In this document: one piece after another, positions 4,843-57,890 of the stretch | Position numbering within the stretch: position 1 is the stretch's first letter | Layout: every line of letters starts with the position of its first letter | Assembly (NCBI RefSeq): GCF_963921235.1 | Contig: NC_086108.1 | Span: 37,326,001 to 37,390,000 of the forward strand | Direction: 5' to 3' | DNA length: 64,000 nt | Source: Mobula hypostoma | Taxonomy: Eukaryota | The notes under the pieces: model-generated | What the model saw: only the letters and a program-made list of their open reading frames with translations | Database searches by the model: none | What the model was told of the DNA's origin: nothing | Position numbers and translations under genes: made by a program

Positions 4843-4960
4843 AAACAGAAAATGTAAGAAGCACTTAGCGAGTCAGGCAGTATCTATATAGAGAGAAAAA
4901 GAGCTAACATTTCAGATTGAAGATATTTTATTATGTCTGGGGAAGTGAGAAAAAAAGTTA
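4843..4960 (-). mobile_element. Penelope-type terminal-repeat remnant
   Basis: Degenerate reverse-complement homologue of the 41346-41482 element (cacttagcgagtcaggcagtatctatatagagag...taacatttcag). Weaker remnants lie near 5160-5220 and 29790-29870. Confidence 0.5.
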
Positions 4961-7855: not shown

Positions 7856-9142
7856 TGTGAAAGGAAAATCATGTCTGACGAATCTCATAGAATTTTTTGA
7901 GGATGTAACTAGTAGAGTGGATAGGGGAGAACCAGTGGATGTGGTATATTTGGATTTTCAAAAGGCTTTTGACAAGGTCCCACACAGGAGATTAGTGTGC
8001 AAACTTAAAGCACACGGTATTGGGGCTAAGGTATTGATGTGGTTAGAGAATTGGTTAGCAGACAGGAAGCAAAGAGTGGGAATAAACGGGACCTTTTCAG
8101 AATGGCAGGCGGTGACTAGTGGGGTACCACAAGGTTCAGTGCTGGGACCCCAGTTGTTTACAATATATATTAATGACTTGGATGAGGGAATTAAATGCAG
8201 CATCTCCAAGTTTGCAGATGACACGAAGCTGGGTGGCAGTGTTAGCAGTGAGGAGGATGCTAAGAGGATGCAGGGTGACTTGGATAGGTTGGGTGAGTGG
8301 GCAAATTCATGGCAGATGCAATTTAATGTGGATAAATGTGAAGTTATCCACTTTGGTGGCAAAAATAGGAAAACAGATTATTATCTGAATGGTGGCCGAT
8401 TAGGAAAAGGGGAGGTGCAACGAGACCTGGGTGTCATTATACACCAGTCATTGAAAGTGGGCATGCAGGTACAGCAGGCGGTGAAAAAGGCGAATGGTAT
8501 GCTGGCATTTATAGCGAGAGGATTCGAGTACAGGAGCAGGGACGTACTACTGCAGTTGTACAAGGCCTTGGTGAGACCACACCTGGAGTATTGTGTGCAG
8601 TTTTGGTCCCCTAATCTGAGGAAAGACATCTTTGCCATAGAGGGAGTACAAAGAAGGTTCACCAGATTGATTCCTGGGATGGCGGGACTTTCATATGAAG
8701 AAAGACTGGATGAATTGGGCTTGTACTCGTTGGAATTTAGAAGATTGAGAGGGGATCTGATTGAAACGTATAAGATCCTAAAGGGATTGGACAGGCTAGA
8801 TGCAGGAAGATTGTTCCCGATGTTGGGGAAGTCCAGAACGAGGGGTCACAGTTTGAAGATAGAGGGGAAGCCTTTTAGGACCAAGATTAGGAAAAACTTC
8901 TTCACACAGAGAGTGGTGAATCTGTGGAATTCTCTGCCACAGGAAACTGTTGAGGCCAGTTCATTGGCTATATTTAAGAGGGAATTAGATATGGCCCTTG
9001 TGGCTACGGGGGTCAGGGGGTATGGAGGGAAGGCTGGGGCGGGGTTCTGAGTTGGATGATCAGCCATGATCATAATAAATGGCGGTGCAGGCTCGAAGGG
9101 CCGAATGGCCTACTCCTGCACCTATTTTCTATGTTTCTATGT
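7856..9142 (+). mobile_element. Young 5'-truncated CR1 LINE inserted in the Tc1 left arm
   Basis: Uninterrupted RT reading frame, short 3' UTR with the ggccgaatggcc hairpin and a (ttctatgt)2 tail. Confidence 0.95.
7857..9050 (+). CDS. CR1 ORF2 RT and C-terminal region, 5'-truncated, 397 codons without a stop (probably not expressed)
   Basis: [53 protein letters not shown] motifs. Confidence 0.85.
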   Translation: MKGKSCLTNLIEFFEDVTSRVDRGEPVDVVYLDFQKAFDKVPHRRLVCKLKAHGIGAKVLMWLENWLADRKQRVGINGTFSEWQAVTSGVPQGSVLGPQLFTIYINDLDEGIKCSISKFADDTKLGGSVSSEEDAKRMQGDLDRLGEWANSWQMQFNVDKCEVIHFGGKNRKTDYYLNGGRLGKGEVQRDLGVIIHQSLKVGMQVQQAVKKANGMLAFIARGFEYRSRDVLLQLYKALVRPHLEYCVQFWSPNLRKDIFAIEGVQRRFTRLIPGMAGLSYEERLDELGLYSLEFRRLRGDLIETYKILKGLDRLDAGRLFPMLGKSRTRGHSLKIEGKPFRTKIRKNFFTQRVVNLWNSLPQETVEASSLAIFKRELDMALVATGVRGYGGKAGAGF

Positions 9143-13464: not shown

Positions 13465-13725
13465 TCTTCCTGTCCTCGCCTCTGTGGGGTAAGTCAGGCT
13501 GTTCTGCCGTTGCCCCATGGGGGGGTCATGTCTTGTCTTGCCCTCACCTCTGAGGGGTAAGTCAGGCCATTTTTCCATTGCCCCGCAGGGGGTCAGGTCT
13601 TGTCTAGTCTTGTCCTTGCCTCTATGGGGTAAGTCAGGCTGTTTTGCCATTGCCCTGTGGGGGTTCATGTCTTGTCTTGTCTTTGCCTCTGTTGGGTAAG
13701 TCTGGCCATCCTGCCATTACCCCAC
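13465..13725. repeat. Minisatellite, about 4 copies of a ~65-bp unit
   Basis: Repeated gcctctgtggggtaagtcaggctgtt...gccattgcccc...ggggtcatgtcttgtcttg. Confidence 0.85.
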
Positions 13726-13954
13726 AGGTGGACCTGTCCCACCTTGGTGTGAAGGTGAAGTTGAGTCCCGGCTTGTCGTAGGATAAGTCCCGGCTCGATG
13801 TCTATATTCTGTCTTCTCTCATGTTAGTTTTGTGTTAAAGATGAGTCCTGGCTTGTTGAAGGATAAGGCCCGGCTCTAAGTTGATGTTCGGTTCCCAGTC
13901 TGTCTTTCAGCTCCAGCCTCCGAGTTATCAGCCTCCGCATTTCAAGACGTAGAT

Positions 13955-16062
13955 CAAGCAGCCAGGCTCCAAGAACCCAAGCCTTGACGATCCTGCAGCC
14001 AAGCTCCAAGAACCCAAGCCTCGAGGATCCCACAGCCAAGCTCCAAGAACCCAAGCCTCGAGGATCCCGCAGCCAAACTCCAAGAACCCTAGCTTCGACG
14101 ATCCCGCAGCCAAGCTCCAAGATCCCAAGCCTTGAGGATCCCTAACCAAGCTCAAGACCCAAGACCCTAGCCTGCAGCCAAGCTGAAGACCCAAGACCCC
14201 AAGCTTCAAGGATGCCAAGCCAAGCTCAATAGACAATAGGTGCAGAAGTAGACCATTCGGCCCTTCGAGCCTGCACAGCCATTCTGAGATCATGGCTGAT
14301 CATCTACTATCAATACCCGGTTCCTGCCTTGTCCCCATAACCCTTGATTCTCCTATCCATAAGATACCTAACTAGCTCCTTCTTGAAAGCATCCAGAGAA
14401 TTGGCCTCCACTGCCTTCTGAGGCAATGCGTTCCACACCTCCACAACTCTCTGGGAGAAGAAGTTCCTCCTCAACTCTGTTCTAAATGACCTACCCCTTA
14501 TTCTTAAACCACGTCCTCTGGTACTGGACTCTCCCAGCATCTGGAACATATTTCCTGCTTCTATCTTGTCCAATTCCTTAATAATCTTGTATGTCTCAAT
14601 CAGATCCCCCCTCAATCTCCTCAATTCCAGTGTGTACAAGCCCAGTCTCTCTAACCTCTCTCCATAAGACAGACCGGACATCCCAGGAATTAACCTAGTG
14701 AACCTACGCTGCACCTCCTCCACAGCCAGGATGTCCTTCCTTAACCCTGGAGACCAAAACTGCACACAATACTCCAGGTGTGGTCTCACCAGGGCCATGT
14801 ACAAATGCAAAAGGATTTCCTTGCTCTTGTACTCAATTCCCTTTGTAATAAAGGCCAACATTCCATTAGCCTTCTTCACTGCCTGCTGCACTTGCTCATT
14901 CACCTTCAAAGACTGATGAACAAGTACTCCTAGATCTCTTTGTATTTCTCCCTTACCTAACTCCACACCATTCAGATAATAATCTGCCTTCCTGTTCTTG
15001 CTCCCAAAATGAGTAACCTCACACTTATTCATATTAAATGCCATCTGCCAAGTATCTGCCCACTCACCCAGCTTCACCTTGAATTCTCCTAACTATCTCA
15101 TCACATGTCATACTGCCACCCAGCTTAGTATCATCAGCAAACTTGCTGATGTTATTCACAATGCCTTCCTCTAAATCATTGACATAAATCGTAAACAGCT
15201 GTGGTCCCAATACTGAGCCCTGTGGCACCCCACTAGTCACCACCTGCCATTCCGAGAAACACCCATTCACTGCTACCCTTTGCTTTCTATCTGATAACCA
15301 GTTTTCTATCCATGTCAATATCCTCCCCCCAATGCAATGAGCTCTGATTTTACCCACCAATCTCCTATGTGGGACCTTATCAAATATCTTCTGAAAGTCA
15401 AGGTACACCACATCCACTGGATCTCCCATGTCTATCTTCCTGGTTACATCTTTGAAAAACTCCAATAGATTAGTCAAGCATGATTTGCCCTTGGTAAATC
15501 CATGCTGGCTCGGCCCAATCTTATTACTGCTATCAAGATATGCCGCTATTTCATCTTTAATAATGGACTCTAGCATCTTCCCCACTACTGATGTTAGGCT
15601 AACAGGGTGATAGTTCTGTGTTTCCTCCCTCCCTCCTTTCTTAAAAAGTGGGATAACATTAGCCATTCGCCAATCCTCAGGAACTGATCCTGAATCTAAG
15701 GAATATTGGAAAATGATCACCAATGCATCTGCAATTTCCAGAGCCACCTCCTTTAGTACCCTAGGATGCAGACCAGCTAGACCTGGGGATTTGTTAGCCT
15801 TCAGTCCCATCAGTCTACTCATCACTGTTTCCTTCCTAATGTCAATCTGTTTCAATTCCTCTGTTACCCTCAAGACCCAAGACCCCAAGCTTCGTGGATC
15901 CCAAGCCAAGCTCAAGACCCAAGACCCCAAGCCTCGAGGATCCCAAGCCAAGCTCAAGACCCAAGACCCCAAGCCTCGAGGATCACAAGCCAAGCTCAAG
16001 ACCCAAGACCTCAAGCCTCGAGGATCCCAAGCCAAGCTCAAGACCCAAGACCCCAGCCTCAA
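13955..16062. repeat. Minisatellite of 36-42-bp units, split by the CR1 at 14230-15868
   Basis: 36-bp units (gcagccaagctccaagaacccaagcctcgaggatcc-like) at 13955-14140 grade into 42-bp units (ctcaagacccaagaccccaagcctcgaggatcccaagccaag) at 14150-14229 and 15869-16062. Confidence 0.9.
14230..15868 (-). mobile_element. 5'-truncated CR1 LINE, fairly young
   Basis: ORFs 15064-16062 and 14310-15077 give the RT and C-terminus with one frameshifting deletion near 15075; ctattgt-type tail; TSD ctcaa at 14225-14229 and 15869-15873. Confidence 0.95.
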
Positions 16063-16469
16063 GCCTTGTCATGTCCTTGCCTGGTTCTGGGTCCTTGTCC
16101 AGTCTCGGGCTCGGAGTCCAAGCCTTGTCTTGTCTCCAAGTCCGGACCTCTAGACCCCAGCCATGTCCTGTCCTGAAGCCATGTCATGTCCTTGCCTGGT
16201 TCCAGGGTCCGAGCCCGAGGCAAGACCCAGGTTCTGGGTTCTTGTCCAGTCTCAGGCTCGGAGTCCAAGCCTTGTCTCCTAGTCCATGATTCCTAGTTCT
16301 GGTTCTGCTTTCCCTAGCCCAAGTCTGCGTTCTTGTCCCTGCTCCTTGCCTGTATCCTGTCACGTCCCTTCTCCAGTCAAGTCCTGTTCCTTGTACTTCA
16401 GGCCCTGTGTCTTGCATTTGGGTCCATTCCCAGCACCCCCTGTGACAGTTCTTTCAGTCATGAGGTTAA

Positions 16470-19890: not shown

Positions 19891-22800
19891 CTTGCAGTAT
19901 TCTTCAACCTCCGACTTCGTTTGGGGCCAGTAAAACTGGTCTCTGAGCAATCCATAGGTCTTTTCCACCCCCAAACGTCCAGAATCATCATGAAGTGACT
20001 TCAGCACAATCCTCCGATACTTCTCGGGCAGAACCAGCCGGCAACGCTGAGGTTGGTCCGGGGGTGATGTGATCCGGGATAAGATCTGGTTCTTCAACTC
20101 CAACCGAGGCCATTCTTTCAGTAATGGAGGCACCGAAGCGTGTTTCGTCTTCTCTGCCTGAGCCATGTCTCCCTTTTCAATCGCGGATCAAATGGTATCG
20201 ATGCATGGGTCATCTCGCCGAGCAGCTGCCACTTCCCCAGAACTCAATTCCGGCAGCTGATTGGTCTTCAGAGTGGTCAGGTTACAGTAAACTTGGAGTA
20301 TGGCGTCATTAGAGCCCCCAATTGATCCACCGCTCAATCTGGCCTCTTCTTTTCCTCTGCCTTCACGGTGATGTCAATCTAACACATGGCCTTCACCCCA
20401 GGGGCAGGAATGCTCTCCCACACCTCAACCCTGTCCAGTCTCTCATGCATCCTTTGGGGCCAAGCTTCCACATCAATGTTCCGGCTCCCTAGCCGGTACT
20501 TCAGTCTGAAATCATAGGCCGAAAACACTGCCAACCTGTGGCATCCAGTTTCGCTGATGTCAGGATATAAGTTAGGGGGTTGCTGTCCGTCCTCACCTCA
20601 AACTTGGCCCCGTAGAGATAGTCACTCAGCTTATCCACCACCGCCCATTTCAACGCCAGGAATTCCAACTTGTGTGTGGGATAGTTTCTCTTGGGCAGCG
20701 ACAAACTCCGACTGACAAGCACCACAGGCCTCAACCCGATGCCCTGATCCTGATACAGGACGGCCCCTAAACCCTCTTGGCTGGCATCTGTGTGCAGTAC
20801 ATATGGCAATCGGGGGTCCACAAAAGCCAGCACTGGTGCCTCGGTCAGCAGCTCCTTCAGCGACTGAAATCAGTGATTTTACATCCCACCTCTGTCCAGA
20901 GGGCTCCGACGGGTTTAGATATTCTCCACCCTCCTGTCCTTTCTCCCCCAGGGGAGCAGAACCACACAGAAGCTGGTTCAAGGGGTGACTCACTTTGGTG
21001 TAGCCCTTTACGAATCTCTGATAATAACCACAGAACCCAAGGAACGAGCGCAGAGCGCTCACAGTCTGGGGCCTTGGCCAAGTGGTCACCGCTTCTATCT
21101 TAGCCGGGTCTGTAACTATTCCATTCTGTGAGATTATGTGTCCAATATAGCTACCGAACGTTTGGCAGAACTGGCACTTGTCCAGGGAAAGTTTTAACCC
21201 TTCAGCTTTCAGGTGACCGAGCACCTTCAGTAGCCTCACTTCATGTTCTTCCAAGGTGGATCCAAATACTGTGAGGTCATGCAAATACACCAATACAGTC
21301 GGCCCTCCTTATTCGCGAGTTTCGTATGCGCAAATTCAACCAACCGCAAATCGAGAAAACCCGGAAGTGCTCTTCCAGCACTTGTTGTTTGAGCATGTAC
21401 AGACTTTTTTTCTTATCATTATTCCCTAAACAATGCAGTATTACAACTATTTACATGGCATTTGCATTGTATTAGGTATAAGTAATCTAGAGATGATTTA
21501 AAGTATACGGGAGGATGTGCGTAGGTTATCATGGATCGGGAATCGATAAAAACTTACTAAGTAAGTCAGAACACGTACATCCGGTATTATTTAGCGCCAG
21601 TTAGTCAAAAGTTTGTCTTAGTATATAGTATATATTTTACCCTTAAACACTTAAGAAATGTATGTTTCAGCACTCAGTTCGATCCAGTGACAGATCGCTC
21701 CCAAATGCACTCTACATCCGTGCCAGGTTGATGTGGAAGACCAAAACCCCAAAACCCAATAATTAAACCACTGTGTTGCTTAGTAATCATTGTAGCTTTC
21801 ATCAGGGCAGGGCCTTTCTCACTTTATCCTTTAAAATTGTTCCGATCGTTGACTGACTGTAGCCTAACGCTTTTCCAATGACTGATGGCATTTCACCTCT
21901 TTCCGATCATTTTGTTAGTTCCACTTTATTTTCAATCGTGATCGTGATTATTTTCGTGAACAGAAACACTGTGGATTCAGAGCTCCGCCGCTGAGTCCTA
22001 ATGTCCACCGCACTGAGACAGGTTGAATAAGGTCCAGGGTTCTGCTGGGTCCTAAGGTCCACCGCATTGAGACAGGTTGAATAAGGGACTGGAGCATCCA
22101 TATTCTTTGGTATCCGCGAGGGATTGGCTCTGGAACCAATCCCTTGCGTATAAGGAGGGATGACTGTACCTCAAGCAAGTTCATATCCCCCACTGTCTTC
22201 TACTTGACCCGCTGGAAGGTTGCCGGGGCTCCCGAGATGCCCTGGGGCAACCTTTCGAACTGGAAGAATCCCAGGGTACATATAAATGCCGCCCTCTTTG
22301 CCAGCCTCACTCATCGGGATCTGGTAATATCCACTCCTCAAATCCAGCACACTAAACCACTTCACAGCACTCAGACAGGCCAGCGCATCTTTGACCCTCG
22401 GGACCATATACTGGTCATGGACGGTGCGCCTGTTCAGAGTCCTATAGTCGACACACATGCATACCTTCCCATTCTTCTTTCGGGCCACTACTACTGGGGA
22501 TGCATAGGGGCTTCTGGACTTAGTGATGATCCCAGCTTCCTTCAACTTACACAAATTCTGCCGCATGGCTTCCACCTCTGCAGGAGCCAGTCTCCACGAC
22601 CTGTCTCTAAACGGGGTGTCCTCGGTCACCCTGATAGTGTGACAAGTGCTCTTGGAACAGCCCACATCAAACTCGCCAATGGAAAAGACACCTTCCAGCT
22701 TCAACATCTTTTCTACCAGCCTCCTTTTCCAACCCGGCGGCACCGGGGAGTCCCCAACGTTGAATGTCTCAGTGGTCAATTTTCCCCCCATTTCCAATAG

Positions 22801-23563
22801 TTTCTGCCCGGCGTGCCTCACAGGGACACTAGACATTACTGTTACTGGGAACAAATGCACCAGGGGCATCCCCCGCTTGAAGGGGCACCTTCCTGTTCGT
22901 AGTGTTCCTGATAATCACTGCCATCCTGTGTCCTGTACAAGCGAGGGCTTCTGCATTTCGGGCCTCACCAGTACCCCAGCAGGAAATCCCAACTCCTCCT
23001 TGTGGTTTTCTGGAGCGTCCACTAAGAGGGCCCTGCCCTCAGGCACTCTGGGAAATTTGGGGGTCCCCATCACTCTTGCTACTTCCCCGGGCCGTACCAC
23101 CATTGGCTTCGACTGGGTGAACCACACAAACCCTGTTTAAGTTCAGTATCCGGCCCAGTGCTGCCACGCACTTCCTCAAACGCAGTTCGAAACACCGGGT
23201 GCACGGAAAATGTTCCCAAAAAGCTCTCACCTGCCTTTTCCTCGTAGGCCCCCATGACCCTCCTCACAAGAGGGTGTTGGTCCCCACCAGAATTGAAACA
23301 CCGCCCTTCTCAACAGGGTCTGGACAAACCAGCACTAATGTATCAAGGACCTCAGACACTCCCTCCGAGAACTCCAGCTTCACTGACAAATAACCGTTGT
23401 ATCGATAATCAACAGCACTGAGACCCCAAATCTCCAGTACATTAAATGGTGTCAAGGGTAAATGCTTCAGAAAACAGTTATAAAATGAATGGTATTGTAA
23501 CGTGACCTGTGAACCGGTGTTGAGTATGGCTTTAGCGTAAATACCCTCTATTTGTAGTGACAC
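19890..23563 (-). pseudogene. Gypsy pol (PR, RT, RNase H, IN zinc finger), multiply disrupted
   Basis: PR AILNTGSQVT (DTG to NTG); RT SPYASPVVV...CVDYRTLN...LDLRSGYYQI...VYLHD; RNase H LHTDAS...HKLEFLALKWAV...RTDSNPL; IN zinc finger LHDDSGRLG...FYWP...YCK. Confidence 0.92.
21296..22166. mobile_element. Tigger-family MITE, MER2-like, inserted in the Gypsy RT
   Basis: TIRs cagtcggccctccttat / ataaggagggatgactg; TA TSD at 21294-21295 and 22167-22168; removing it restores the RT peptide MNLLEV-LVYLHD. Confidence 0.92.
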
Positions 23564-29575: not shown

Positions 29576-30412
29576 TAATCATGGTGAGGCCAATAATGCC
29601 AACTCATTGGATTGTTGAATAAAAGGTGGATGTATTAATGATGGTGATTACTATTATTAGGAATTTCCTTAGCCCAAATTATTAGTACTAATAGTAAACT
29701 AGAAGTTACTGCATCAAGGTGAGGTGAGGTGCAGTGGTTCCTGAATATTGGTAAGTTTTCCCAGGAAGCAGTCTGAATTTCCAGTCACAAAACACACTCA
29801 GCAAGCCAGGTAGCGCCTGTGGACAGAAAAATAAAATCGCTATTTCAGGCTGATTTGTTTTTATCACAATCTAGTCATCAGCCTTGTTGTATAATCTCTC
29901 AATTTTGATTAAAGGCAAAAATCATTCTCCAAATTTGACTTCCAACAACTGACTTGCAATAGAGTTAAAAAGCTTCCAACCCTGAAATTGTTTTAACTTA
30001 GTCCATGTATTCTGGATACCAAACAAGAGCACAACAGGATCACTTCAATCTCCGAAACAAGGTTTTAATTTGCAATTGATAGAAATGTTATCATTAATCT
30101 TTACAAATAAAAACATAGCACTTGTGGATCCATTGTGGTGTCAGAGTACTCATTTTGCAACCTAGCAGTAGTCATGATCTATTTATCTTGTGTCTGTCTT
30201 TATGCTGCCTTCATTCCCATCAGATCCTAGACTTACTTCTGGATGACAAGAGTGTTTTGCTTCAAACCTGGCTGAAGACTCCTGTCAGGATCTGTGTAAT
30301 GTTACAAAGCAAAAGTTCATCAAGTAGACATTTAGTGAGCTCAAGCAAAGCTAACAGTGCCGAGATTAATCAGGGGTTGTTCTGAATGTGTGCATGGTGA
30401 ATAACCTCGTCA

Positions 30413-31640: not shown

Positions 31641-34600
31641 CAGTTCTGTGTCTAGATCTGTTGTATTACACGCACTGCAATCGGCAGCAATGTAATTTTA
31701 AGCAACAAACGTTTAAATTGATTTAATCAACTGCAGAACTTCTGAAGGATTTGGTGGACTTAACTCTCAAGCATAGTCATAGTCATAGTCATATTTTATT
31801 GAGCCCGGGGGAAACTAGTTTTCGTTACAGTTGCACCATAAATAATAAATAGTAATAGAACCATAAATAGTTAAATAGTAATATGTAAATTATGAAATAA
31901 GTCCAGGACCAGCCTATTGGCTCAGGGTGTCTGACCCCCAAGGGAGGAGTTGTAAAGTTTGATGGCCACAGGCAGGAAGCATGCAGGTACATCACTTTTA
32001 AGCAGATGAAGGTTTATCGCCATGGCCTGAAGTGAGGCAGGCGTGACGGGAGACTCCAAGCCAGGCTGAAACACAATGGGATAAAAACTCCTGTATTCAG
32101 TGTCTTGTTAGCAAATGTGAAGTCACTGGATAACAAAATTGAAGATCAGAGGGCAAGAATGCTATATCGAAGGGAAATGAGAAATTGTTTGTGTTTTCTA
32201 TGTTTTCTTGAGACGTGGCTTAATCAGAGTACGCCAGATACAGCAATTAGACCTGAAGGCTTCTTGATACATGGGATGGACTGAACTGCTGATTTAGAAA
32301 AGGGAAACGGTGGATGTGTGTGTTTCATGATAAACTCTCTCTGGTGCTCTGATCTGGCAGCTTTGTTGTACTCTTGTTCCTCCAACCTTGAGCACTTAAC
32401 AATCAAATGTCATCCATTCTCCTCCGTGATTCTGGCCACAGTTTATGCATATACCACCAGCAGCCGACTATAATCAAGCGCTTGAGATACTGCATGATGC
32501 CATCACCAAACAAGAAACAGTCCACCCTGATGTATTTCAAATCATAGTTGGGGACGCATTCGGGCTTGTTTGAAGAAATCTCTGCCCGATTACCATCGGT
32601 GTATAATCTGTAGCACTACAGCTCCCAACATACTAGATCACTGCTATATTAAGATAAGGAATGCCTACTGTTCCATGCCCAGACCGCACTTTGGGAAATC
32701 TGATCCCTTGGCTGTCCTTCTACCTGCAGACAGGCAGAGACTAATGAGCAAGGCTCCAGAGATGAGGACAACAAACAGGTGATCATGGGAGGCAGAAGGG
32801 CAGCTGTAGAATTGCTCTGAGTTGGTGGATGGGGCTGTGTTCAAGCAGCCATCTGTGGACCTGAATGAATACACCACGGTTGTCATGGACTTCATTAAAA
32901 TGAATGCATCTCCACAAAATCATTCAGCGTTTTCCCCAACCAGAAGCCCTGGATGAACCAGGAGATCCACAACCTGCTGAAGGCCGGATCATAGCATTCA
33001 AGTCTGGCGACCACAAAAGTTACACGAGATCCAGGTGTGATCTCCGGAAAGCCATCTCATGGGCAAAGTGACAATTCTGGATTAAATTTGAATCAATGAA
33101 GGATGCTCAACAGCTGTGGCAGGGCTTGAAGGCTATTACCTCTTACAAAGTGAAACCAAGTGACAGTGATGACCACAGAGCTTCGCTTCCAGATGAGCTC
33201 AATGCCTTCTCTGCTCGCTTTGACCATCAAATCATGGAGGAACCATCACAAGCTCCCACAGCCCCCATTGATCCTGTGATTTCAGTCTCTGAGACCCGTG
33301 TTTGAGGATCCTTCAGGAGGGTAAACCCATGGAAAGCATCCGGCCCCAGCTGGTGTACCTGGCCCAGTACTAAAGACCTGTGCTGATCAACTGGCTAGAG
33401 TGTTCACTGAGATCTTCAACCTCTCGCTTTGGCCGTCTGAGGTAGTCACCTGCTTTAAGCAGGCTTCAATTATACCAGTGCCTAAGAAGAGCTTGAGGAG
33501 CAATGATTATCGTCCAGTAGCACTTAGATCCAAAGTGATGAAGTGTTTTCAGAGGTCAGTGATGAAACTTCTCTGGCTGAGAAGTGACTTGGATGCACCC
33601 CAGTTTGCCTGCCAGCACAACAGGTCTTTAGCAGATCCTTTTTCATTGGCCCTTCACTCAACCCTGGGTCATCTGGACAGCAAGGGTGCATACGTCAGGA
33701 TGCTCTTTATCAGCTACAGGTTGGCATTCAATAGTATCATTCCCTCAAATATAATCAATAAAATAAGCTTCAAGACCTTGGCCTAAATACCTCCTTCTGC
33801 AATTTGATCCTCGATATTCTCATTTGTAGACCCAGACAGTTCAGATTAGTAACAATATCTCCATCCGCACAGGTGCACCACAAGGCTGTGTGCTTACTCA
33901 CTTTACACCTATGACTGTGTAGCTAAGAACAGTTCCAGTGGCATATTCAAGTCTGCTGATAACATCACCATTGAAAGTTGAATCAGAGGTGGTGATAAGT
34001 CAACATCTAGGAGGTAGATTGAAGATCTGGCTGAGTGGTGCTGCAACAACAATCTCTTACTCAGTGTCACCAAGACCAAGCAGCTGGTTATTGACTACAA
34101 GAAAAGGAAACCAGAGGCTCACGAGCCAGTCCTCATTGGAGGATCAGAGGCAGAGAGGGTCAGCAACTTTAAATTCCTCGGTGTTATTACTTCAGAGGGC
34201 CTGTCCTTGGCTCAGCACGTACACACAGTTATGAAGAAAGCACAGCAGCTCCTCTAATTCCTTAAGAGTTTATGAAGATTCAGCATGACATCTATAACTT
34301 TGACTAACCTCTAGGTGTGATGGAGGGTATATTGATTGGTTGCGTCACAGCAATACCCTTGAACAGAAAATCCTACAAAAAGTAGTGGATATGGCACAGT
34401 CCATCACATGTTAGGCTCTCCCCACTGCTGAGCACGTCAACATGGAGCTTTGTCGCAGGGAAGCAGCATCCATCATCTGAGACCCCCACCAGCCAGGTCA
34501 TGCTCTTTTCTCACTGCTGTCATCAGGAAAAAAAAGATATAGGAGCATCAGAGCTCACACTACCAGGTTCAGGAACAGTTATTACCCTTCAACCATCAGG

Positions 34601-34970: not shown

Positions 34971-36354
34971 TCATCTCACTAGACAGGATGGAGTTGCATT
35001 AAGTTGTGCTTTATTCTCCTTAAAAGGTGACATTGATATTTGATGTTGGAGCAAAGAGTTGACACGGTGAACTGAGTCACAGCCTCCACTTGCAGAAATA
35101 ATTTGTCATTTTTGACACCCCAAGTGGAAAGATGACACTCTGTTATGTGAAATATTAAAATTAATGGTATCCACTCCTTATGTTGTCTCAATGGCAACCT
35201 TATTAATGGAGCAACAACCATGGTGAGTACTTATTTATTCACAAGGTGCTCAATCATGTGACCTCTATGTTTTGCAGTAGCCCTGGAGTTGAGTTGCAGC
35301 TGGATTTTGCTGGGGGAACAGCTGGGGTAACATAGATAGTGTGTGCCACCTTAACATAACATAGATAGTGTGTGCTACCTTAACTAACCCAACTTCTGAG
35401 CACTCATGTTCCACCTCCGAGTCAATGTAATTATTTTCTCTCATTGACTGTTCTGAAGTCATAACAATTGACCTCTTTTAAGATTCTATGTTAATTAATC
35501 TAAATGTTGATGAAAGTCTCTTCTTGAGGAATCCAAATGGGTTGAGTATGAGGAGAAAAAAAATTGTAAGTAGTAGGGTTTAGGATTACTCCTCCCATGA
35601 GGTGAATGTACGTTTTCAGAGCAAATTTCACCACAACCTACAGCAGACTTAATTCTATCAGTGTGTGAAATATTAGCAATTAATTTCTGCTGAATAATTC
35701 CTATCCTCTAAAAATAATGTAGTCAGCTCATCTACCCTGATTATATGGTTTTGCTCCTTCCCGGTCACAGAGAACTTTTCCAGAGGGCAGTATAAGTAAA
35801 TATTGAAACGGAGATTTGTTAGATGTGAAGGCACTAGCAGGTGGGGAGTGTTCACCACAAGGGAGTTATACTGTTTAAGGAAAGTAGTGGGAATGGGAAA
35901 TCATGTGTATTAGGAAGGAAACAAGTATGATTCTGCTGATATGGAAATTAACTGTGCTGGACTGAAATCTTTAAGTTTCTGTTGGAGTACACAGCTGGCT
36001 CTTTAGCAGTAATCAAACAGAGAAAAAATAACTTTCTCCATTTCCCAGCCCCTTTGCGATGCTCAGTGTGTGGTGAAAGTCAATCAGAGTTTTGAAAATA
36101 GTAGACAGAAAACATTTGTCAGTTTTGTCGCAAGGCTTGAGTATTTCTACAGATAGCATTTCATGCACCCACGTTTGTCCTTCATGTAAGAGAAAAGCAC
36201 CAGGTTGTCCCAGTAATGGGAACCATTGCTCTCCTGTTCAGCAATGCCTCTAACATAAAAATAAACGCATTATTTTTGTTTGTAGCAGTACTCCTTGTTG
36301 CAGTCATCTTTTGCGATTTCTTGGACTTCAGTGTGTCATCTAGTGATTTTTTTA

Positions 36355-38210
36355 CCTTTAGGCAATCCCTCAGATGACTTGTTTCTTCTCCAGTTGAGGT
36401 CAGTAGGGAGGACCTGCTCACTCTGCCACAGATGGGCCAGGAGGAATAGGTGGGTGGCTGATCTGGTGATATTGTGCTCCTCACCTCAGTTTTGCTAGAC
36501 ATCCTTGTGCTCCTTGTCTCTGAAACTTGCCTCAGTTCCATCTTGGATGTTCTTTCTCTTTGAGCAGTCCTGGACCAGAGGAGGCTACTTTGCTTTAAGG
36601 GTGCTTCAAGAGCATCTCTGAAGCGTTTCTTCTCTGCTCTTTGTAATCTGTTGCCATTTTAGAACGTGGAGCAGGAGTGAACATAACATAGGAACATAAG
36701 AAATAGGAGCAGGAGTAGGCCATCCGGCCCATCGAGCCTGCCCCACAATTCAATAAGATCATTTCTAAATGCTTTGCTATTTATTTCTTAATAACAGTTT
36801 CAAGCATTTTCCTGACTACCGATGTTAAGCTAATTGGCCTATAGTTGCCCGTCTTTTGCCTACATCCTTTTTTAAAACGTGGCGTGATATTTGCTGTCTT
36901 CCAATCTGCCGGTACCTGCCCAGAGTCTAGAGAGTTTTGATAAATGATTACCAACGTGTCTATTATAACCTCCGCCAATTCCCTCAGCACCCTGGGATAC
37001 ATCCCATCAGGACCAGGGGACTTATCTACCTTCAGGCCCTCTAATTTGCTCATCACTAGCTCTTTAGTGACAGTGATTTTATCGAGGTCCTCACCTCCCA
37101 TTTCGTCCATAACATCCTTCTTTGGCTAATTAGACGTGTCCTCCACCATGAAGACCGACACAAAATAGTCGTTCAATGCCTCAGCCATTTCCTTTTCACC
37201 CAATATCAATTTCCCCTTCTTGTCTTCCAAGGGACCTACATTGACTTTAGCCACCCTCTTCTGCTTTATATATTTATAAAAACTTTTGTTATCTGTTTTT
37301 ATATTTTGTACTAATTTACTTTCATACTCTATCTTCCCTTTCCTTATTTCTTGTTCAGTTGCTTTTTGTTGCTTTTTAAAGTTTTCCCAATCCTCCCGTC
37401 TCCCACTACTCTTTGCGACTTTGTACACATGAGCTTTTAATTTGATACTATCTTTTATTTCCTTAGTTATCCAAGGCTGGCTCTCCAAACACTAACATGC
37501 TGCTCAAGAAAGCCATCATGGATGCATTCTATGAAGTCCTCCTCAAAACTTCCTTGATCAACCTGATTCACCGTGTGGAAGTTAAAATCCCCCATGACAA
37601 CTGCCGTTCTGTTCTTACAAGCCTCAGTTACTTCTTGGTTAATTGCCTCTGCCACTGCAATATTTTTATTAGGTGACCTATAGACAACTCCCACCAGTGA
37701 TTTTCTCCCTTTACTATTCTTAATTTCTACCCAGATGGACTCAACATTCTGCTCCATAGATCTTATATCGTCCCTCACAATCATCCTGATCTCATCCCTA
37801 ATCAAGACCGTCACCCCAGCTCCTTTGCCTTCCTGCCTATCTTTCCATATTACCTGATACCCTTGGATATTTAATTCCCAGTCGTCTCCACCTTGCAACC
37901 AGGTGAGTCTTGAAAGACTGGTATCTAGCAAATAGATGATTTGGTCATCGTTGGAGCCGCTGAATATAATTGGAGCCTCAATGACAGAGATGTTGGCCTG
38001 GGAGTAGATGCTGTCCTTGGTTCACTTATTCTGCCAATGGATTTGGAGGATTTTGTGGACACACCATTAGTGGTGCTTGTACAGTGCTTTGAAATGCCTC
38101 TGCAAAGTAGTTCATGTCTCAGAAGGAGAGAGGAGGGCAGGGATCACTGCTGTCATGATGATCATGAGCTTTGTGTAAGGATTGAAGCCTTGATATTCAA
38201 CCACAGTACT
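36355..38210 (-). mobile_element. RTE-clade LINE 3' fragment split by a CR1 insertion
   Basis: Minus strand 38200-37905 reads TKLMIIMTAVIPALLSPSET...KILQIHWQ...SQANIS...LDTSLSRL and continues at 36680-36355 with EKKRFRDALEAPLK and PICGRVSRSSL. Confidence 0.75.
36681..37903 (-). mobile_element. CR1 LINE with two large internal deletions
   Basis: EN fragment (37490-37903), linker to RT start (36761-37488), then direct join to the 3' UTR and tail (36681-36760); possible gtga TSD. Confidence 0.88.
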
Positions 38211-39455: not shown

Positions 39456-41345
39456 ATAATTACCTAAATTAAACTTTAGTCTGCACTGGATCCCAATCCA
39501 TTCCTCAGCTGGTAGCTATCCTTAAAGATCACCATGGCAAAAAGACAGCAGAGCAAGCTTCTACACACTCTCATCCATTGGAACTTACACCCGCGACTGG
39601 AGATAGCTAACCTAACAACAGCTAGAGAGCAAACCCTGATCTGAACCGCATTTCCCTAAAGATACCTTGCTTTATTGTGAGCTAAGTATTAAAACCTTCA
39701 AATATAAAAGTATTTCACACAGTTTTAATTCTGCAAATTACTTTTGGTTTCTGTTATCATACTGAGTTTTGTACCATCAAGAGACAACCTTATTATTCAG
39801 GATTAGTTTAACAGCAGTGAAGTTTTATAGTATCTCCGTGTAGTGTTAGATTTCAGCACTGTCCTAATGAATAACAAATTCTGTTTCACAAATCTTGAGG
39901 AAAACATGCAAAAGGTGAAATTATCTTGAAAATTCTTCAGTGAAAGAAAGAATAAAACAAAACTTCTTATGGCAATAAAAATGCATAGCTTCCGAAGGCA
40001 AACCCCTGGACAGTCTTATGTCTTGGCAGTTTGCAGCTCTCTGATTGTACTTGGAGATTAGTACCAGCTAAAAGGAATCTGTCATCATTGCAAATCCGTT
40101 TTAACCTACTGGCCTGAGGAATTGTTTTTCTTTTAACACTGATGGAATTTTCTTCCAATGTGAATTGATTGGAATTTTGATCTTGTCTAAGGCAGAAAAA
40201 TCACAAGAATTGTTGCAGTACTTCTGAGCTCTATGTTTCACCAATGCTCAGTGTTCCAGCCAGACACAATGTGGGGCATTAACTCGAAGCATAGAATTGC
40301 CAATTAGGATTGAAACAGCTGTAAACCAGTTGCACAGTGCTTGACTTCACTGTCGTCCTGGATGTGCGCTTTTTCTCAACTATCCCAGGAAAAGGTTGGA
40401 AGCAGTCAGATGCTGAGAAATGCTGGCTGGTTGTTGGTGCCAGCGCATAGCAGAAGGGACTTCCAATCAGTGATGTCATGTACCCAGCAGGCAACTGCAT
40501 TAAATTTATGGCAGGTGTCAAAAGTAATCAGATGCAGAGAAATTCTAAGTGCACCTTTGTCTCTTTCTATAAAGACCTCCACAAAACAGCAAATATTACT
40601 GCTTTAATAGTTATATCCTGACAGGATTAATAAGGGTTCCCTCAAGGAAAGTCAAATTTCATGGATGTCCAGTTTGGAATAGTCTATTTGTGTCATTGAG
40701 GGCACCTCCACTCAAGACTATTCAAGCAGGACCATTCAAGTATGTAAGGGAGCATAAATAGGATACTGTGTTTTGCTAGGTGACTGCATAGTTATGTTGT
40801 GCATGGGATACTGGGTGGACTTAACAAGAAGTAGAAATTGTTTGCCTTGTTATTCCAGTTCCACAGTTATGTTAACTGAGCTTCCTGGCCTTGAAATAAT
40901 CTTGCAGCAAAATGAATGCAGGAAGCATTGAAGTGAATGATTCTATTTTTCTATAAAGCAGCTAAATGTAATGAAATGAAAGTTCCTGCAGAGATTAATG
41001 GTGAGATTAGGAACTCATATTCTGAATGCAGTATCCTGTCCTGTTGCAATATGATTAAAGGATGAGTCCAGCTCCAGGCACTGCAACTTAGGGCAATAAT
41101 GAGACATGGAGGATCATCAAGGCCTTGAATCAAAATTGGGACAAAATTTCTAAAGGTCTGAATTCCCTAAATATGGGACATTGTGGGGTAACTTGATTAA
41201 CATTTTAGGGCATCAAATGGAATTAATAGGTAGATATGATCAAATGGTTAGGAGGGAATTTTTTTCAAGTCATCGAAATGTAGAATAAGGGAATATAATT
41301 TTGAAATTCCACCCTGGAGTTTCAGAAAGGAAGTTAAGAATCAGA

Positions 41346-41482
41346 CGAAGAATCCTGACGAAGGGTCTCGGCCTGAAACGTCGACTGCGCCTCTTCCTAT
41401 AGATGCTGCTTGGCCTGCTGCGTTCACCAGCAACTTTGATGTATGTTGCTTGAATTTCCAGCATCTGCAGAATTCCTGTTGT
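41346..41482 (+). mobile_element. Penelope-like element terminal-repeat fragment, young
   Basis: Perfect 12-bp TSD ttaagaatcaga (41334-41345, 41483-41494); CpG-rich; hammerhead core followed by gatgctgcttggcctgctgcgttcaccagca...ttccagcatctgcag. Confidence 0.8.
41351..41387 (+). ncRNA. Minimal type I hammerhead ribozyme motif
   Basis: CTGACGA (41355-41361), stem II agg/cct, GAAA (41375-41378), palindromic ACGT, GTC triplet ending 41382; stem I aatc/gact has one mismatch. Confidence 0.7.
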
Positions 41483-42299
41483 TTAAGAATCAGATTTTCT
41501 AACAAAGTGTAGCAGGCATTAAATTCTTGCTCAATAACCACTAGCTTCTCACTCAATCAATAATTTTAAATCTGATATAGCCAGATGTATACTAGCTTTT
41601 AATATTAAAAGATATAAACCAGAGCTAGTCAATGTTTGCAGTCATAGATTTGGTTGAATGACAAAAAATGTCCAAATGTCTGAATGATCTGTTTCATTGT
41701 GTTAAGTTCCTCAGCTCATCATCGGAGTAAACTAATCATCTGGTTTGAATCCTGTGCTGATTAATTACAATCTGGAGGCTTTGTCACCTGTTGTTACATC
41801 ATCTTCAAAGCACCTTCAGTCTGACAGCCGCTGATTGTGTCATTGCTACCTTGGAAGATGAATTCCAGGTCAGACTGTTTATTCCCTATCTTCCTTACAC
41901 ATAATCCACGAGAAATAATAATCTTCATTTATATTATTTTTGCTTAAGAAGCACAGTAAAATGCTGAGCATTCTTTATTGGAGTGATTATCATCAGACAT
42001 GTGAGGTGATACTACATGGAGTTAGAAAATATTTGGACAAATGAGCAAGCATACGGTCAATACGACAGGTTTTAAGGAACATCTTTAGACGGGGAAGACA
42101 CGTAGTGAGCGAGAGGGGAAAGGCAAAGTAGTTCCAGAACACAGGGTGTCAGAAGCCAAAGCCACTGTTCCTTTCATCAGTGCACAAAAAGTCAGAATTA
42201 GGCCCATGTAGAGACTTTGGAAGATCGCAGGACTGGAGGAGGATACAGGAGGAACAGTTGGGGCAAGGCCATGGAGAAATACAAATCGAGTATGAATTT

Positions 42300-49608: not shown

Positions 49609-51905
49609 AAGACATAAGACCATAAGACCATAAGACAAAGGAGCAGAAGTAGGCCATTCGGCCCATCGAGTCTGCTCCGCCATTTTATCATGAGCTGATC
49701 TATTTTATCCTATTTAGTTCCACTGCCCCGCCTTCTCACCATAACCATAGATGCCCTGGCTACTCAGATACCTATCAATCTCTGCCTTAAGTACACCCAA
49801 TGACTTGGCCTCCACTGCTGCCTGTGGCAACAAATTCCATAGATTCACCACCCTCTGACTAAAAAATGTTTTTGCATTTCTGTTCTGAAAGGGCGCCCTT
49901 CAATCCTGAAGTCATGCCCTCTCGTACTAGACTCCCCCATCATGGGAAACAACTTTGCCACATCCACTCTGTCCATGCCTTTTAACATTCGAAATGTTTC
50001 TATGAGGTCTCCCCTCATTCTTCTAAACTCCAAGGAATACAGTCCAAGAGCGGACAAACGTTCCTCATATGTTAACCCTCTCTTTCCCGGAATCATTCTA
50101 GTGAATCTTCTCTGTACCCTCTCCAACGTCAGCACATCCTTTCTTAAATAAGGAGACCAAAACTGCCCACAGTACTCCAAGTGAGGTCTCACCAGCACCT
50201 TATAGAGCCTCAACATCACATCCTTGCTCCTATACTCTATTCCTCTAGAAATGAAGGCCAACATTGCATTCGCCTTCTTCACTACCAACTCAACCTGGAG
50301 GTTAACTTTAAGGGAATCCTATACGAGGACTCCCAAGTCCCGTTGCATCTCAGAACTTTGAATTCTTTCCCCATTTAAATAATAGTCTGCCCGTTTATTT
50401 TTTCTGCCAAAGTGCATAACCATACACTTTCCAACATTGTACTTCATTTGCCACTTCTCTGCCCATTCTTCCAATCTATCCAAGTCTCTCTGCAGACTCT
50501 CCGTTTCCTCAGCACTACCGGCCCCTCCACCTATCTTCTTATCGTCAGCAAACTTAGCCACAAAGCCATTTATTCCATAATCCAAATCGTTGATGTACAA
50601 TGTAAAAAGAAGCGGCCCCAACACTGATCCCTGTGGAACACCACTGGTAACCGGCAGCCAACCAGAATAGGATCCCTTTATTCCCACTCTCTGTTTCCTG
50701 CCAATCAGCCAACGCTGTATCCACGTATGTAACTTTCCTGTAATTCCATGGGCTCTTATCTTGTTAAGCAGCCTCATGTGTGGCACCTTGTCAAACGCCT
50801 TCTGAAAATCCAAATATACAACATCCACTGCATCTCCCTTGTCTAGCCTACTAGTAATTTCCTCAAAAAATTGTAATAGGTTTGTCAGGCAGGATTTTCC
50901 TTTAAGGAATCCATGCTGAGTTCTGCCTATCTTGTCATATGCCTCCAGGTACTCTGTAACCTCATCCTTGACAATCGACTCCAACAACTTCCCAACCACT
51001 GACGTCAAGCTAACAGGTCTATAATTTCCTTTTTACTTCCTTGCCCCCTTCTTAAATAGCGGAGTGACATTTGCAATCTTCCAGTCTTCCGGAACAATGC
51101 CAGAATCAATCAACTTTTGAAAGATCATCGCTAATGCCTCCGCAATCTCCACAGCTACTTCCTTCAGAACACGAGGGTGCATTCCATCTGGTCCAGGAGA
51201 TTTATCGACCTTTAGCTTATTCAGCTTCCTGAGTACTTTCTCTGTCGTAATTGTGACTGCGCGCACTTCTCTTCCCTGCCACCCTTGAGTGTCCGGTATC
51301 CTGCTGTCTTCCTCAGTGAAGACTGATGCAAAATACTTGTTCAGTTCCTCTGCCATCTTCTCATCTCCCATTACAATTTCTCCAGTATCATTTTCTATCG
51401 GTCCTATATCTACTCTCACCTGTCTTTTACTCGTTATATACTTGAAAAAGCTTTTAGTATCCTCTTTGATATTATTTGCTAGTTTCCTTTCATAGTTAAT
51501 CTTTTCTCTCTTAATGACCTTCTTGGTTTCTTTTTGTAAGGTTTTAAAGACTTCCCAATCCTCTGTCTTCCCACTAATTTTTGCTTCCTTGTATGCCCTC
51601 TCCTTTGCTTTAATTTTGGTTTTGACTTCTCTTGTCAACCACGGTTGCATCCTTTTTTCACTCGAAAATTTCTTCTTTTTTGGAATATACCTGTCTTGCA
51701 CATTCCTCATTTCTCGCATAAACTCCAGCCACTGCTGCTCTGCCGTCATTCCCGCCAGTGTCCCTTTCCAGTCAACTTTGGCCAGTTCCCCTCTCATGCC
51801 ACTGTAGTTTCCTTTACTCCACTGAAACACCGACACATCAGATTTCGGCTTCTCTTTTTCTAATTTCACAGTGAACTCAATCATGTTATGATTACTGCCT
51901 CCTAA
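49609..51905 (-). mobile_element. Young 5'-truncated CR1 LINE
   Basis: ORFs 51033-51884, 50319-51008 and 49845-50288 share one frame and are separated by single stops; (tcttatgg)3 tail; probable cctaa TSD or microhomology at 49604-49608 and 51901-51905. Confidence 0.95.
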
Positions 51906-52089
51906 CTTTCTTGGTTAGAAAGTTAACCAAGTTAGAAACTTGGTTAAGTTAGAAACAAGTTAAAACAAAATAGAAATTAATATATAATGAGCTGCAACTT
52001 CCAGATTGTACAATACAAAACCCTTTAATTTCTTCTTTGATTCTTTTAGAAGAAAAAACTGAAACCAAAAAGGAGCTGGAGTCACCTTA

Positions 52090-55109: not shown

Positions 55110-57890
55110 ATACACCTCCCATCCGTGTATCTGTCCAATTTATTCTTAAATGTTAAAAAAGACCCGCATTTACCACCTCGTCTGGCAGCTCATTCCACAC
55201 TCCCACCACTCTCTGTGTGAAGAAGCCCCCCCCCCCCAATATTCCCTTTAAGCTTTTCCCCCTACACCCTTAACCCATGTTCTGGTTTTTTTTCTCCCCT
55301 TGCCTCAGTGGAAAAAGCCTGCTTGCATTCACTCTATCTATACCCGTCATAATTTTATATACCTCTATCAAATCTCCCCTCATTCTTCTACGCTCCAGGG
55401 AATAAAGTCCTAACCTATTCACCCTTTCTCTGTAACTGAGATTCTCAAGTCCCGGCAACATCCTTGGAAACCTCTGCGCTCTTTCAACCTTATTAATATC
55501 CTTCTTGTAATTTGGTGACCAAAGCTGAACACAATACTCCAGATTCGGCCTCACCAATACCTTATACAACCTCATCATAACATTCCAGCTCTTATACGCA
55601 ATACAGTACTTTGATTAATAAAGGCCAATGTACCAAAAGCTCTCTTTATGACCCTATCTACCTGTGATGCCACTTTTAGGGAATTTTGTATCTGTATTCC
55701 CAGATCCCTCTGTTCTACTGCACTCCTCAGTGCCTTATTATTTACCCTATATGTTCTACCTTGGTTTGTCCTTCCAAAGAGCAATACCTCACACTTGTCT
55801 GTATTAAAGTCCATCTGCCATTTTTCAGCCAATTTTCCAGCTGGTCCAAGTCCCTCTACAAGCTTTGAAAACCTTCTTCACTGTCCACTACACCTCCAAT
55901 CTTTTCTATCATCAGCAAATTTACTGATCCAATTTACCACATTATCATTCAGATCATTGATATAGATGACAAATAACAATGGACCCAGCGCTGATCCCTG
56001 TGGCACACCACTAGTCACAGGCCTCCACTCTGAGAAGCAATCCTCTACTACCACTCTTTGGCTTCTTCCATTGAGCCAATGGCCAATCCAATTTACCACC
56101 TCTCCATGTATACCTAGCGACTGAATTTTCCTAACTAACCTCCCATGCGGGACCTTGTCAAAGGCCTTACTGAAGTCCACGTAGACAACATCCACTGCCT
56201 TCCCTTCATCCACTTTCCTGGTAACCTCCTCGAAAACTCCAATAGATTGGTCAAACATGACCTACCACGCACAAAGCTATGTTGACTCTCTCTAATAAGT
56301 CCCTGTCTATCCAGATGCTTGTAGATTCTGTCTCTTAGTATTCCCTCCAATAACTTACCCACTACCAACGTCAAACTTACCGGCCTGTAATTTTCCGGAT
56401 TAATTTTCGATCCTTTTTTAAACAACGGAACAACACGAGCCATTCTCCAATCTTCCGGCACCTCATCGGTAGACACCGACATTTTAAATATACCTGCCAG
56501 GGCCCCTGCAATTTCAACACTATTCTCCTTCAAGATCCGAGGGAATACCGTCAGGTCTTGGGGATTTATCCACTTTAATTTGCTTCAAAATAGCAAGCAC
56601 CTCCTCCTTTTCAATCTGTACAGTTTCCATGATCTCACTACTTGTTTCCCTTAATTCAATAGACTTCATGCCAGTTTCCTCAGGAAATACAGATGCAAAA
56701 ACCCATTTAAGATCTCCCACTTTTCTTCTGGTTCCGCATATAGTCGACCACTCTGATTTTCAAGAGGACCAGTTTTATCCCTTACAATCCTTTTACTCTA
56801 AATATACCTGTATATTTAGAAGCTCTTTGGATTATCCTTCACTTTGACTGCCAACGCAACCTCATGTCTTCTTTTAGCCCTCCTGATTTCCTTCTTGTAT
56901 TTTCTTGCACTTTTTATACTCCTTAAGCACCCTATTTACTCCGTTTCCTATACATGTCATACAACTCTCTCTTCTTCTTTATCAGAGTTGCAATATCCCT
57001 TGAGAACCAATGTTCCTTATTCCTATTCACTTTGCCTTTAATCCTGACAGGAACATACAAGCTCTGCACTCTCAAATTTTCTCCTTTGAAGGCTTCCCAC
57101 TTACCAATCACATCCTTGCCAGAGAACAACCTGTCCCAATCCACGCTTTTTAGATCCTTTCTCATTTCTTCATATTTGGCCTTCTTCCAGTTTAGAACCT
57201 CAACCCTAGGACCAGATCTATCTTTATCTGTGATCAAGTTGAAACTAATGGTGTTATGATCACTGGAACCAAACTGCTCCCCTACACACACTTCCATCAC
57301 TTGTCCTAACTCATTTTCTAATAGGAGATCTAATATTGCACCCTCTCTAGCTGGTACCTCTATATATTGATTTAGAAAACTTTCCTGAACACATTTTACA
57401 AACTCTAACCCATCTGGACCCCTAACAGTATGGGAGTCCTAGTCAATATGTGGAAAATTAAAATCCCCTACCACCACAACTTTATGTTTCCTGCAGTTGC
57501 CTGCTATCTTTCTGCAGATTTGCTCCTCCAATTCTCGTTGACTATTGGGTGGTCTATAATACAATCCCACTAATGTGGCCATACCTTTCCTGTTTCTCAG
57601 CTCCACCCATAAGGACTCAGTAGACAAGCCCTCTAATCTGTCCTGCCTCAGCACTGCTGTAATATTTTCCCTGAAAAGCAATGCTACCCCCCCACCTTTC
57701 ATTCCTCTGCCTCGATCACATCTGAAACATTGGAACCCTGGAATATTAAGCTGCTAGTCCTGCCCCTCCTGTAGCCAAGTTTCACTAATTGCTATAACGT
57801 CATAATTTCACGTGTCAATCCACACCCTCAACTCATCTGCCTTCCCCACAATACTCCTAGCATTGCAATACATACACCTCAGAAGATTTT
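55110..57890 (-). pseudogene. CR1 ORF2 (APE endonuclease + RT), multiply frameshifted
   Basis: [72 protein letters not shown]. Confidence 0.92.

Follow-up and report, generated by a model that had tools for sequence, protein, structure and literature searches.

The insert at 41334-41494

The window (the whole stretch of DNA that was analysed, 64,000 nt from Mobula hypostoma) contains at 41334-41494 a short insert between two copies of a target site duplication (TSD). The features of this insert, and of one old relative elsewhere in the window, are listed below. Position 0 is 41354, the C preceding the hammerhead core, and the predicted ribozyme cut lies between +28 and +29.

41334..41345, plus strand: left TSD copy, TTAAGAATCAGA, read from the sequence
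41346..41352, plus strand: 7-nt junction insert CGAAGAA, probably left by templated repair
41353..41484, plus strand: pseudo-LTR (pLTR) and long tail of a Neptune-type Penelope-like element, -1..+131, matching the tandem copy L243 at 132 of 132 positions
41353..41387, plus strand: minimal type I hammerhead motif, from a 2-nt remnant of the 5' arm of stem I to GACTG
41448..41484, plus strand: tail of about 35 nt, running from the short 3' end (about +93 to +98) to the long 3' end (about +130 to +133)
41483..41494, plus strand: right TSD copy, TTAAGAATCAGA, of which the first TT is common to the end of the element
29796..29881, minus strand: pLTR-like relic, old and diverged, whose CTGATGA...GAAA core starts at 29881; the part 29796-29853 scores E=0.0085 in nhmmer

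The motif consists of the core CTGACGA (41355-41361), stem II AGG/CCT (41362-41374) and GAAA (41375-41378), followed by CG-TC, with the predicted cut after C41382. The boxes of a minimal type I hammerhead, its stem III reduced to a palindrome, are present as described in the first-pass annotation, and the stutter at the 5' junction reads as reported there. Two of its measurements were amended. The perfect 12-bp repeat is present, yet the duplication is 10-12 bp in length since TT is shared with the element end. The insert described as 137 bp is likewise present, but the element proper comprises 132 nt (41353-41484), to which the 7-nt junction insert is added. Within the junction, CGAAG equals element positions +5..+9 and AAGAATC repeats the target. 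Inserts of CGAA(G) directly 5' of the core were also seen at 4 of 76 sites with a short start and at 6 of 30 loci of the class starting at -3.

Stem I had been called imperfect, which is true of this copy, where 2 bp of the stem are left, but not of the family, in which TAGTC pairs with GACTG. Of 43 unselected copies reaching 25 nt upstream, 41 carry TAGTC in the 5' arm, 36 carry GACTG in the 3' arm and 27 have both boxes intact. Both the core and the stem I pairing are conserved in the family. Because stem I pairs fully in copies that reach upstream, its mismatch arises at the junction of this particular copy, and the RNA of this copy is predicted not to cleave. In RNA folding predictions the monomer forms an inactive hairpin, in which GACG pairs with CGUC; inactive forms were favoured for monomer and dimer alike, and this copy was the least able to adopt the active fold. 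One predicted hairpin spans -3..+32, and a second, formed from upstream sequence at -16..+11, covers the core. Rfam gave no hammerhead match in the window or in one intact copy of the family; minimal hammerheads of this kind have been defined with a dedicated descriptor (excerpts of PMC4209133).

The minimal type I hammerheads of Penelope-like elements, as presented in the same excerpts, share with this motif the conserved boxes, a short helix I, a palindromic 15.2/16.2 and almost no helix III, and they too are mostly single motifs in truncated copies. Helix II is 3-4 bp here versus 7-8 bp in Schistosoma (excerpts of PMC4209133), and most of helix I is gone from this copy. Decayed relatives had been proposed at 4843, 5160 and 29790. 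When the window was searched by nhmmer with a profile built from 18 copies, only the last, at 29796-29853, was significant; the segments at 4863-4895 (E=0.72) and 5179-5202 (E=4.9) were not.

Two further observations concern the motif and its surroundings. A second pyrimidine tract with a YAG, resembling a 3' splice site, lies 3' of the hammerhead at +36..+48 (41390-41401); this tract repeats CTCTTCCT of -17..-10, and locus L135 has a deletion near these repeats. In 3 of 100 listed copies (C1:50360383, 98170412 and 103023575 are examples) the hammerhead core is wholly absent, owing to a deletion between two GTC words of stem I.

The autonomous element and its family

Exact searches of the 3.48 Gb genome returned 37,833 matches of a 34-nt core; a shorter core of 20 nt matched 67,869 times, and a 30-nt piece lying further 3' matched 64,181 times. 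The reversed controls of the core and 3' pieces gave 0 matches, so that the abundance of the motif is not due to chance; counted by the exact hammerhead core, the family has about 68,000 copies in the genome. The first 30 core matches on contig C1, from which all of our samples were drawn, have upstream sequence in common for up to 1.1 kb, entering RT and GIY-YIG coding sequence. The search for an RT/GIY-YIG partner with the same terminus, which the first-pass annotation had recommended, succeeded, as an intact 1014-aa ORF lies between two pLTRs (L200/L201). The autonomous unit is 3.5 kb long with this single RT and GIY-YIG ORF (protein P0001). In tandem copies the order is ORF stop (-300), pyrimidine-rich 3' UTR, hammerhead, tail and ATG (+167).

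In Pfam searches P0001 matched RVT_1 (E=9.8e-6) and GIY-YIG (E=7.6e-4), both below the Pfam cut-off, and GIY-YIG scored above the cut-off in locus L060. NCBIfam gave no match to P0001, and neither did tblastn of P0001 against the window. Among 7,988 proteins scored, 538 were related to P0001 at E<=1e-30, and the best named relative is a shark protein with 71% identity. The linker between the RT and the endonuclease (EN) in P0001 reads CKQNKCYTC (CX4CXXC), which agrees with the CX2-5CXXC pattern used for Neptune; a CX2-5CXXC linker is also present in Nematis (excerpts of PMC8557442). The DKG motif is present in L193 and L197 and altered in P0001.

Several properties of EN-bearing Penelope-like elements were found together, namely a single ORF with RT and C-terminal GIY-YIG, pLTRs from partial tandems, inverted 5' copies, a tail of 30-40 nt and a hammerhead motif in the pLTR. 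Motifs, rather than a tree, point to an EN-bearing Penelope-like element of the Neptune type. As described in excerpts of PMC8557442, the Neptune clade has the same ORF organization, CX4CXXC linker and partial-tandem pLTR, and shares heavy 5' truncation, inverted 5' copies, a 30-40 nt tail on one end and the pLTR hammerhead. The 5' truncation described there is general, whereas the stop recorded here falls on one base at the 5' margin of stem I. Poseidon belongs to another clade by its linker motif, and its ORF starts inside the hammerhead, while the ATG here lies 167 nt after the core, past the tail (PMC11167929).

The 132 nt at 41353-41484 align to L243 with 0 mismatches, and L243 continues from there to the ORF ATG at +167. 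The Penelope-like origin and the mobilisation by a Penelope RT that had been suggested for the insert are both borne out. The further claim of a separate non-coding family bearing a ribozyme was abandoned, as the insert is the 3' end of an autonomous element and identical to it. Among the tens of thousands of stumps that this known class of retroelement has left in the genome, it is an ordinary and young one. Very probably it is a 5'-truncated copy of the pLTR and tail of an autonomous Neptune-type Penelope-like element, and it was likely made by that element's RT/GIY-YIG protein up to a fixed stop before the core. The evidence consists of the identity to the element end, the intact ORF of the partner, two discrete 3' ends, the TSD, and the clustering of 5' ends at -2/-3 and not at +29.

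Much of what surrounds this stop has been described before, including 5' truncation, pLTRs, tails, inverted copies, TSDs, microhomology junctions and solo pLTRs (excerpts of PMC8557442, PMC3846280 and PMC6765202). No fixed stop or truncation hot spot at the stem I of a hammerhead was found within the limited literature searched. The single-base stop at the 5' edge of stem I is a modest addition to a known kind of element. The family-wide record bears on three matters: the completion of 5' ends in Penelope-like elements, the origin of their pseudo-LTRs and inverted pairs, and the role of the hammerhead (excerpts of PMC8557442; PMC11167929). The family is young and has intact ORFs, and together with the sharp stop, the scarcity of ends at the cut and the asymmetry of tails this provides exact coordinates for an existing in vitro system.

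Older pLTR subfamilies, about 68-80% identical and with other sequence 5' of the core, were seen at L026, L035, L096, L408, L417 and L425, and could tell whether the stop follows the initiator-like word considered below or the stem. The two loci of each of the pairs L381/L382 and L104/L148 have the same flanks and the same insertion, as would local segmental duplications or copies inside another repeat.

Ends of the copies

An unselected sample was formed from the first 100 matches of the 3' 30-mer on C1. Their 3' ends fall into two classes about 35 nt apart, with 47 short, 52 long and 1 that runs on. Their 5' ends range from within the motif to more than 1 kb upstream: 26 lie at +4..+59, 22 at -7..+3, 12 at -31..-8, 7 at -131..-32, 4 at -303..-132 and 29 in the ORF. 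Expressed as loss per nucleotide, this amounts to 0.46% over +4..+59, 2.7% over -7..+3, 0.96% over -31..-8, 0.17% over -131..-32 and 0.07% over -303..-132. The first-pass annotation named random truncation of a long element as a finding that would count against its own reading. The copies are indeed truncated, the insert being the 3' end of the autonomous element, but their ends are not random.

Starts within -12..0 were resolved with a pattern that matched 5,469 of the 67,869 core-bearing copies. By eye, the first 100 listed starts were distributed as 5 at 0, 6 at -1, 23 at -2, 26 at -3, 7 at -4, 5 at -5, 15 at -6 and 13 at -7..-12. Ninety of these 100 loci were examined and comprised 34 simple, 55 inverted and 1 direct; half of the simple insertions (17/34) start at -2/-3. 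Exact counts of 3,006 at -2 and 2,956 at -3 scale to about 6,000 and 4,300 copies, together about 15%. Among 30 loci of the -3 class, 3 seem to belong to an older subfamily without a truncation at this position and 1 has an internal deletion, so a range of 13-15% is safer than 15%. About 13-15% of core-bearing copies, or about one in seven, start at G(-2) or A(-3). In simple insertions -2 dominates, with about 4,200 copies versus about 600 above chance at -3. Several -2 starts (L371, L376, L381, L392 and L399) adjoin the TSD without shared bases, which argues that the 5' end is set by the cDNA and not picked by microhomology.

The predicted cleavage site presents a different picture. Its pattern window matched 2,942 of 115,628, and 17 of 100 listed starts were at +29, corresponding to about 0.8% of copies. 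These 17 form a small local peak against 4-5 at adjacent positions, and 13 of them are, by eye, inverted, deletion or tandem junctions. Ribozyme cleavage may contribute a small real share of ends. The cleavage site as the feature defining 5' ends was rejected, as less than 1% of copies start there.

Neighbouring copies in the unselected sample are inverted in 46 cases and direct in 5. In head-to-head pairs with both partners sampled (n=10), one partner has a long and the other a short tail in 9 of 10 (p=0.011). In Poseidon of Anolis carolinensis 3' ends of this sort correspond to a pair of internal sites at which the RT starts, one at either limit of the tail; both strands are cut and extended there, and hammerhead cleavage is unneeded (PMC11167929). 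From that biochemistry we infer a staggered cut of both strands in the present element, with internal initiation at two sites about 35 nt apart.

At the junction of an inverted and a forward copy in L224 (1310-1363) lies a 5' fragment of a tRNA (Rfam tRNA, 28.4 bits, E=0.0089, GUC anticodon), which suggests that the template was switched to a tRNA. A complete tRNA was not detected in L224 by ARAGORN.

Formation of the stump and the cause of the stop

The insert most likely formed as follows. The element's protein would cut the target with a stagger of 10-12 nt, and target-primed reverse transcription would begin at the long internal start site on an RNA that was probably uncleaved. The cDNA would end at about -2, the fixed stop just 5' of the core, and then lose one base. 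At the junction, GA of the target would anneal to GA of the element, CGAAG would be copied, and the target AATC would be re-copied before rejoining at TC. The earlier suggestion that the 5' end was resolved by annealing to the target is upheld, with a 7-nt junction that appears to be templated. We take this junction to be a product of end-joining repair, for which no paper on Penelope-like elements was found in the literature searched.

The cause of the stop is a separate matter. Penelope has an internal TATA-less promoter (excerpts of PMC2377424). The family sequence has TTAGTCC at -3 and TTCAGTT at -7, and the stops at -2 and -6 each follow the A of these words. Both words are initiator-like. 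The cause that we favour, at somewhat less than even weight, is that the RNA starts at the initiator-like A(-3) and the RT ends one base short. Because the RNA would begin at A(-3) with the RT one base short of it, the stumps would be the Penelope counterpart of strong-stop DNA. Against a start of the RNA at this point, the main peak of simple insertions is G(-2) and not the initiator A(-3). A downstream-promoter-like match is poor. No excess of a cap-derived G was found at -4 (23 of 100 listed copies by eye versus about 30 expected). It also counts against an RNA start that few ORF-proximal pLTRs, 2 of 18, stop there.

It is possible, if more tentative still, that a strong-stop step in the replication of Penelope, falling on a single base, is recorded by some ten thousand copies in the genome, with the start of the RNA as its fixed point. 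The RT would run about 100 or 135 nt from the pLTR to the 5' edge of stem I, and then jump or fail. Of the two subunits of a dimer, one would start at the long site and the other at the short site of the opposite strand, with the ribozyme cut rarely in use. The upstream hairpin at -16..+11 would, according to the folding model, close over the core and silence the downstream hammerhead. Only an RNA starting at the stop point could then form the hammerhead, because upstream sequence covers the core.

Rather than an RNA end, a block on a longer RNA at -2 and -6 might halt the RT one base before an occupied or modified A, as at a 3' splice site bound by splicing factors or at a branch-point A. We place this second and regard it as somewhat unlikely, although a number of details agree with it. 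Both peaks are the G of an AG 3' of a pyrimidine tract, and the order is that of branch-like CTCAC/CTAAC, tract, and then CAG/TTAG/TCC. The lack of an excess of cap-derived G fits such a block, and in D. virilis the intron ends at the 5' end of helix I (excerpts of PMC4209133); introns are retained by Penelope elements. On ORF-proximal pLTRs reaching the core, 2 of 18 stop at -3/-4 (by eye), a similar rate that suits a leaky block as well as an RNA end. None of the joints listed, from sequencing-run contigs of guessed type, is a spliced joint ending at these sites, and copies starting at -2 or -6 are without a common upstream exon. An origin of the 5' flank as a spliced exon was itself rejected, there being no upstream sequence in common.

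The cDNA could alternatively fold back on the inverted repeats of the hammerhead and be trimmed or cut to the edge of the hairpin. The two RNA hairpins predicted at -3..+32 and -16..+11 would allow this, and about 19 of 100 listed head-to-head junctions are, by eye, near-perfect palindromes around -2..+1. Since many head-to-head junctions are of this kind, self-complementarity shapes the inverted junctions. As the cause of the stop, however, fold-back is improbable. With DNA parameters the cDNA end pairs weakly and stem I is not formed (-5.2 to -6.7 kcal/mol, with a separate hairpin counted in, when the end lies at -1 to -8), and the peak of simple insertions is on one base, with no bases shared.

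Short copies with TSDs, near-uniform and present in the thousands, could also be taken for a separate non-autonomous ribozyme mini-element or retrozyme that is transcribed and moved again as one unit of about 135 nt. The pLTRs of Penelope are able to act in trans (excerpts of PMC3846280) and to give rise to retrozymes (excerpts of 10.64898/2026.07.22.740005), and an internal promoter might in principle survive in a copy that starts at -3, which could then copy itself. Non-LTR retrozymes share with the insert a derivation from pLTRs or a relation to them, a hammerhead and dispersed monomers. They are tandem units each with a full hammerhead (excerpts of 10.64898/2026.07.22.740005), whereas the insert consists of one pLTR stump left by a coding element. 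We found no tandem arrays of short units with a full hammerhead among the 100 unselected copies. A SINE-like element should have a diagnostic 5' sequence of its own; no base of the insert differs from the autonomous element, and a GAAT start was seen by eye in 1 of 100 listed copies with a non-consensus start. The 5' ends range continuously to the ORF, and short copies share the variants of long copies. A mini-element of this kind is thus very unlikely. Two candidates from the first search were discarded as products of query bias: a family of its own with a GAATC start, which had appeared at 30 of 30 loci, and a circular unit joined at AGAAT(T)CCTG.

That hammerhead self-cleavage makes the RNA end defining the insertions is highly unlikely: the core and stem I are conserved in the family and a small local peak lies at +29, but the cut lies about 30 nt downstream of the point where this copy and those of the main peak begin, and in Anolis cleavage is unneeded for insertion and no reads end at the site (PMC11167929).

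The rest of the window is rich in retroelements. LINE-type RT fragments were identified at 7815-9050, 14310-16068, 33325-33786, 49845-51914 and 56932-57438, with RVT_1 matches for 7815-9047 and 33325-33783. Broken polymerase fragments with RVT_1 occupy 20631-23140 on the minus strand, and are presumably of a retroelement of the LTR type, judged from their motifs. Open frames occur on both strands of 36141-36658; the minus frame is without a Pfam match, and the plus strand, which resembles a hydrophobic leader, could be an exon of the host. At 13485-14184 and 16067-16277 the sequence is repeated in tandem or nearly so, with a spacing of 100-200 nt.
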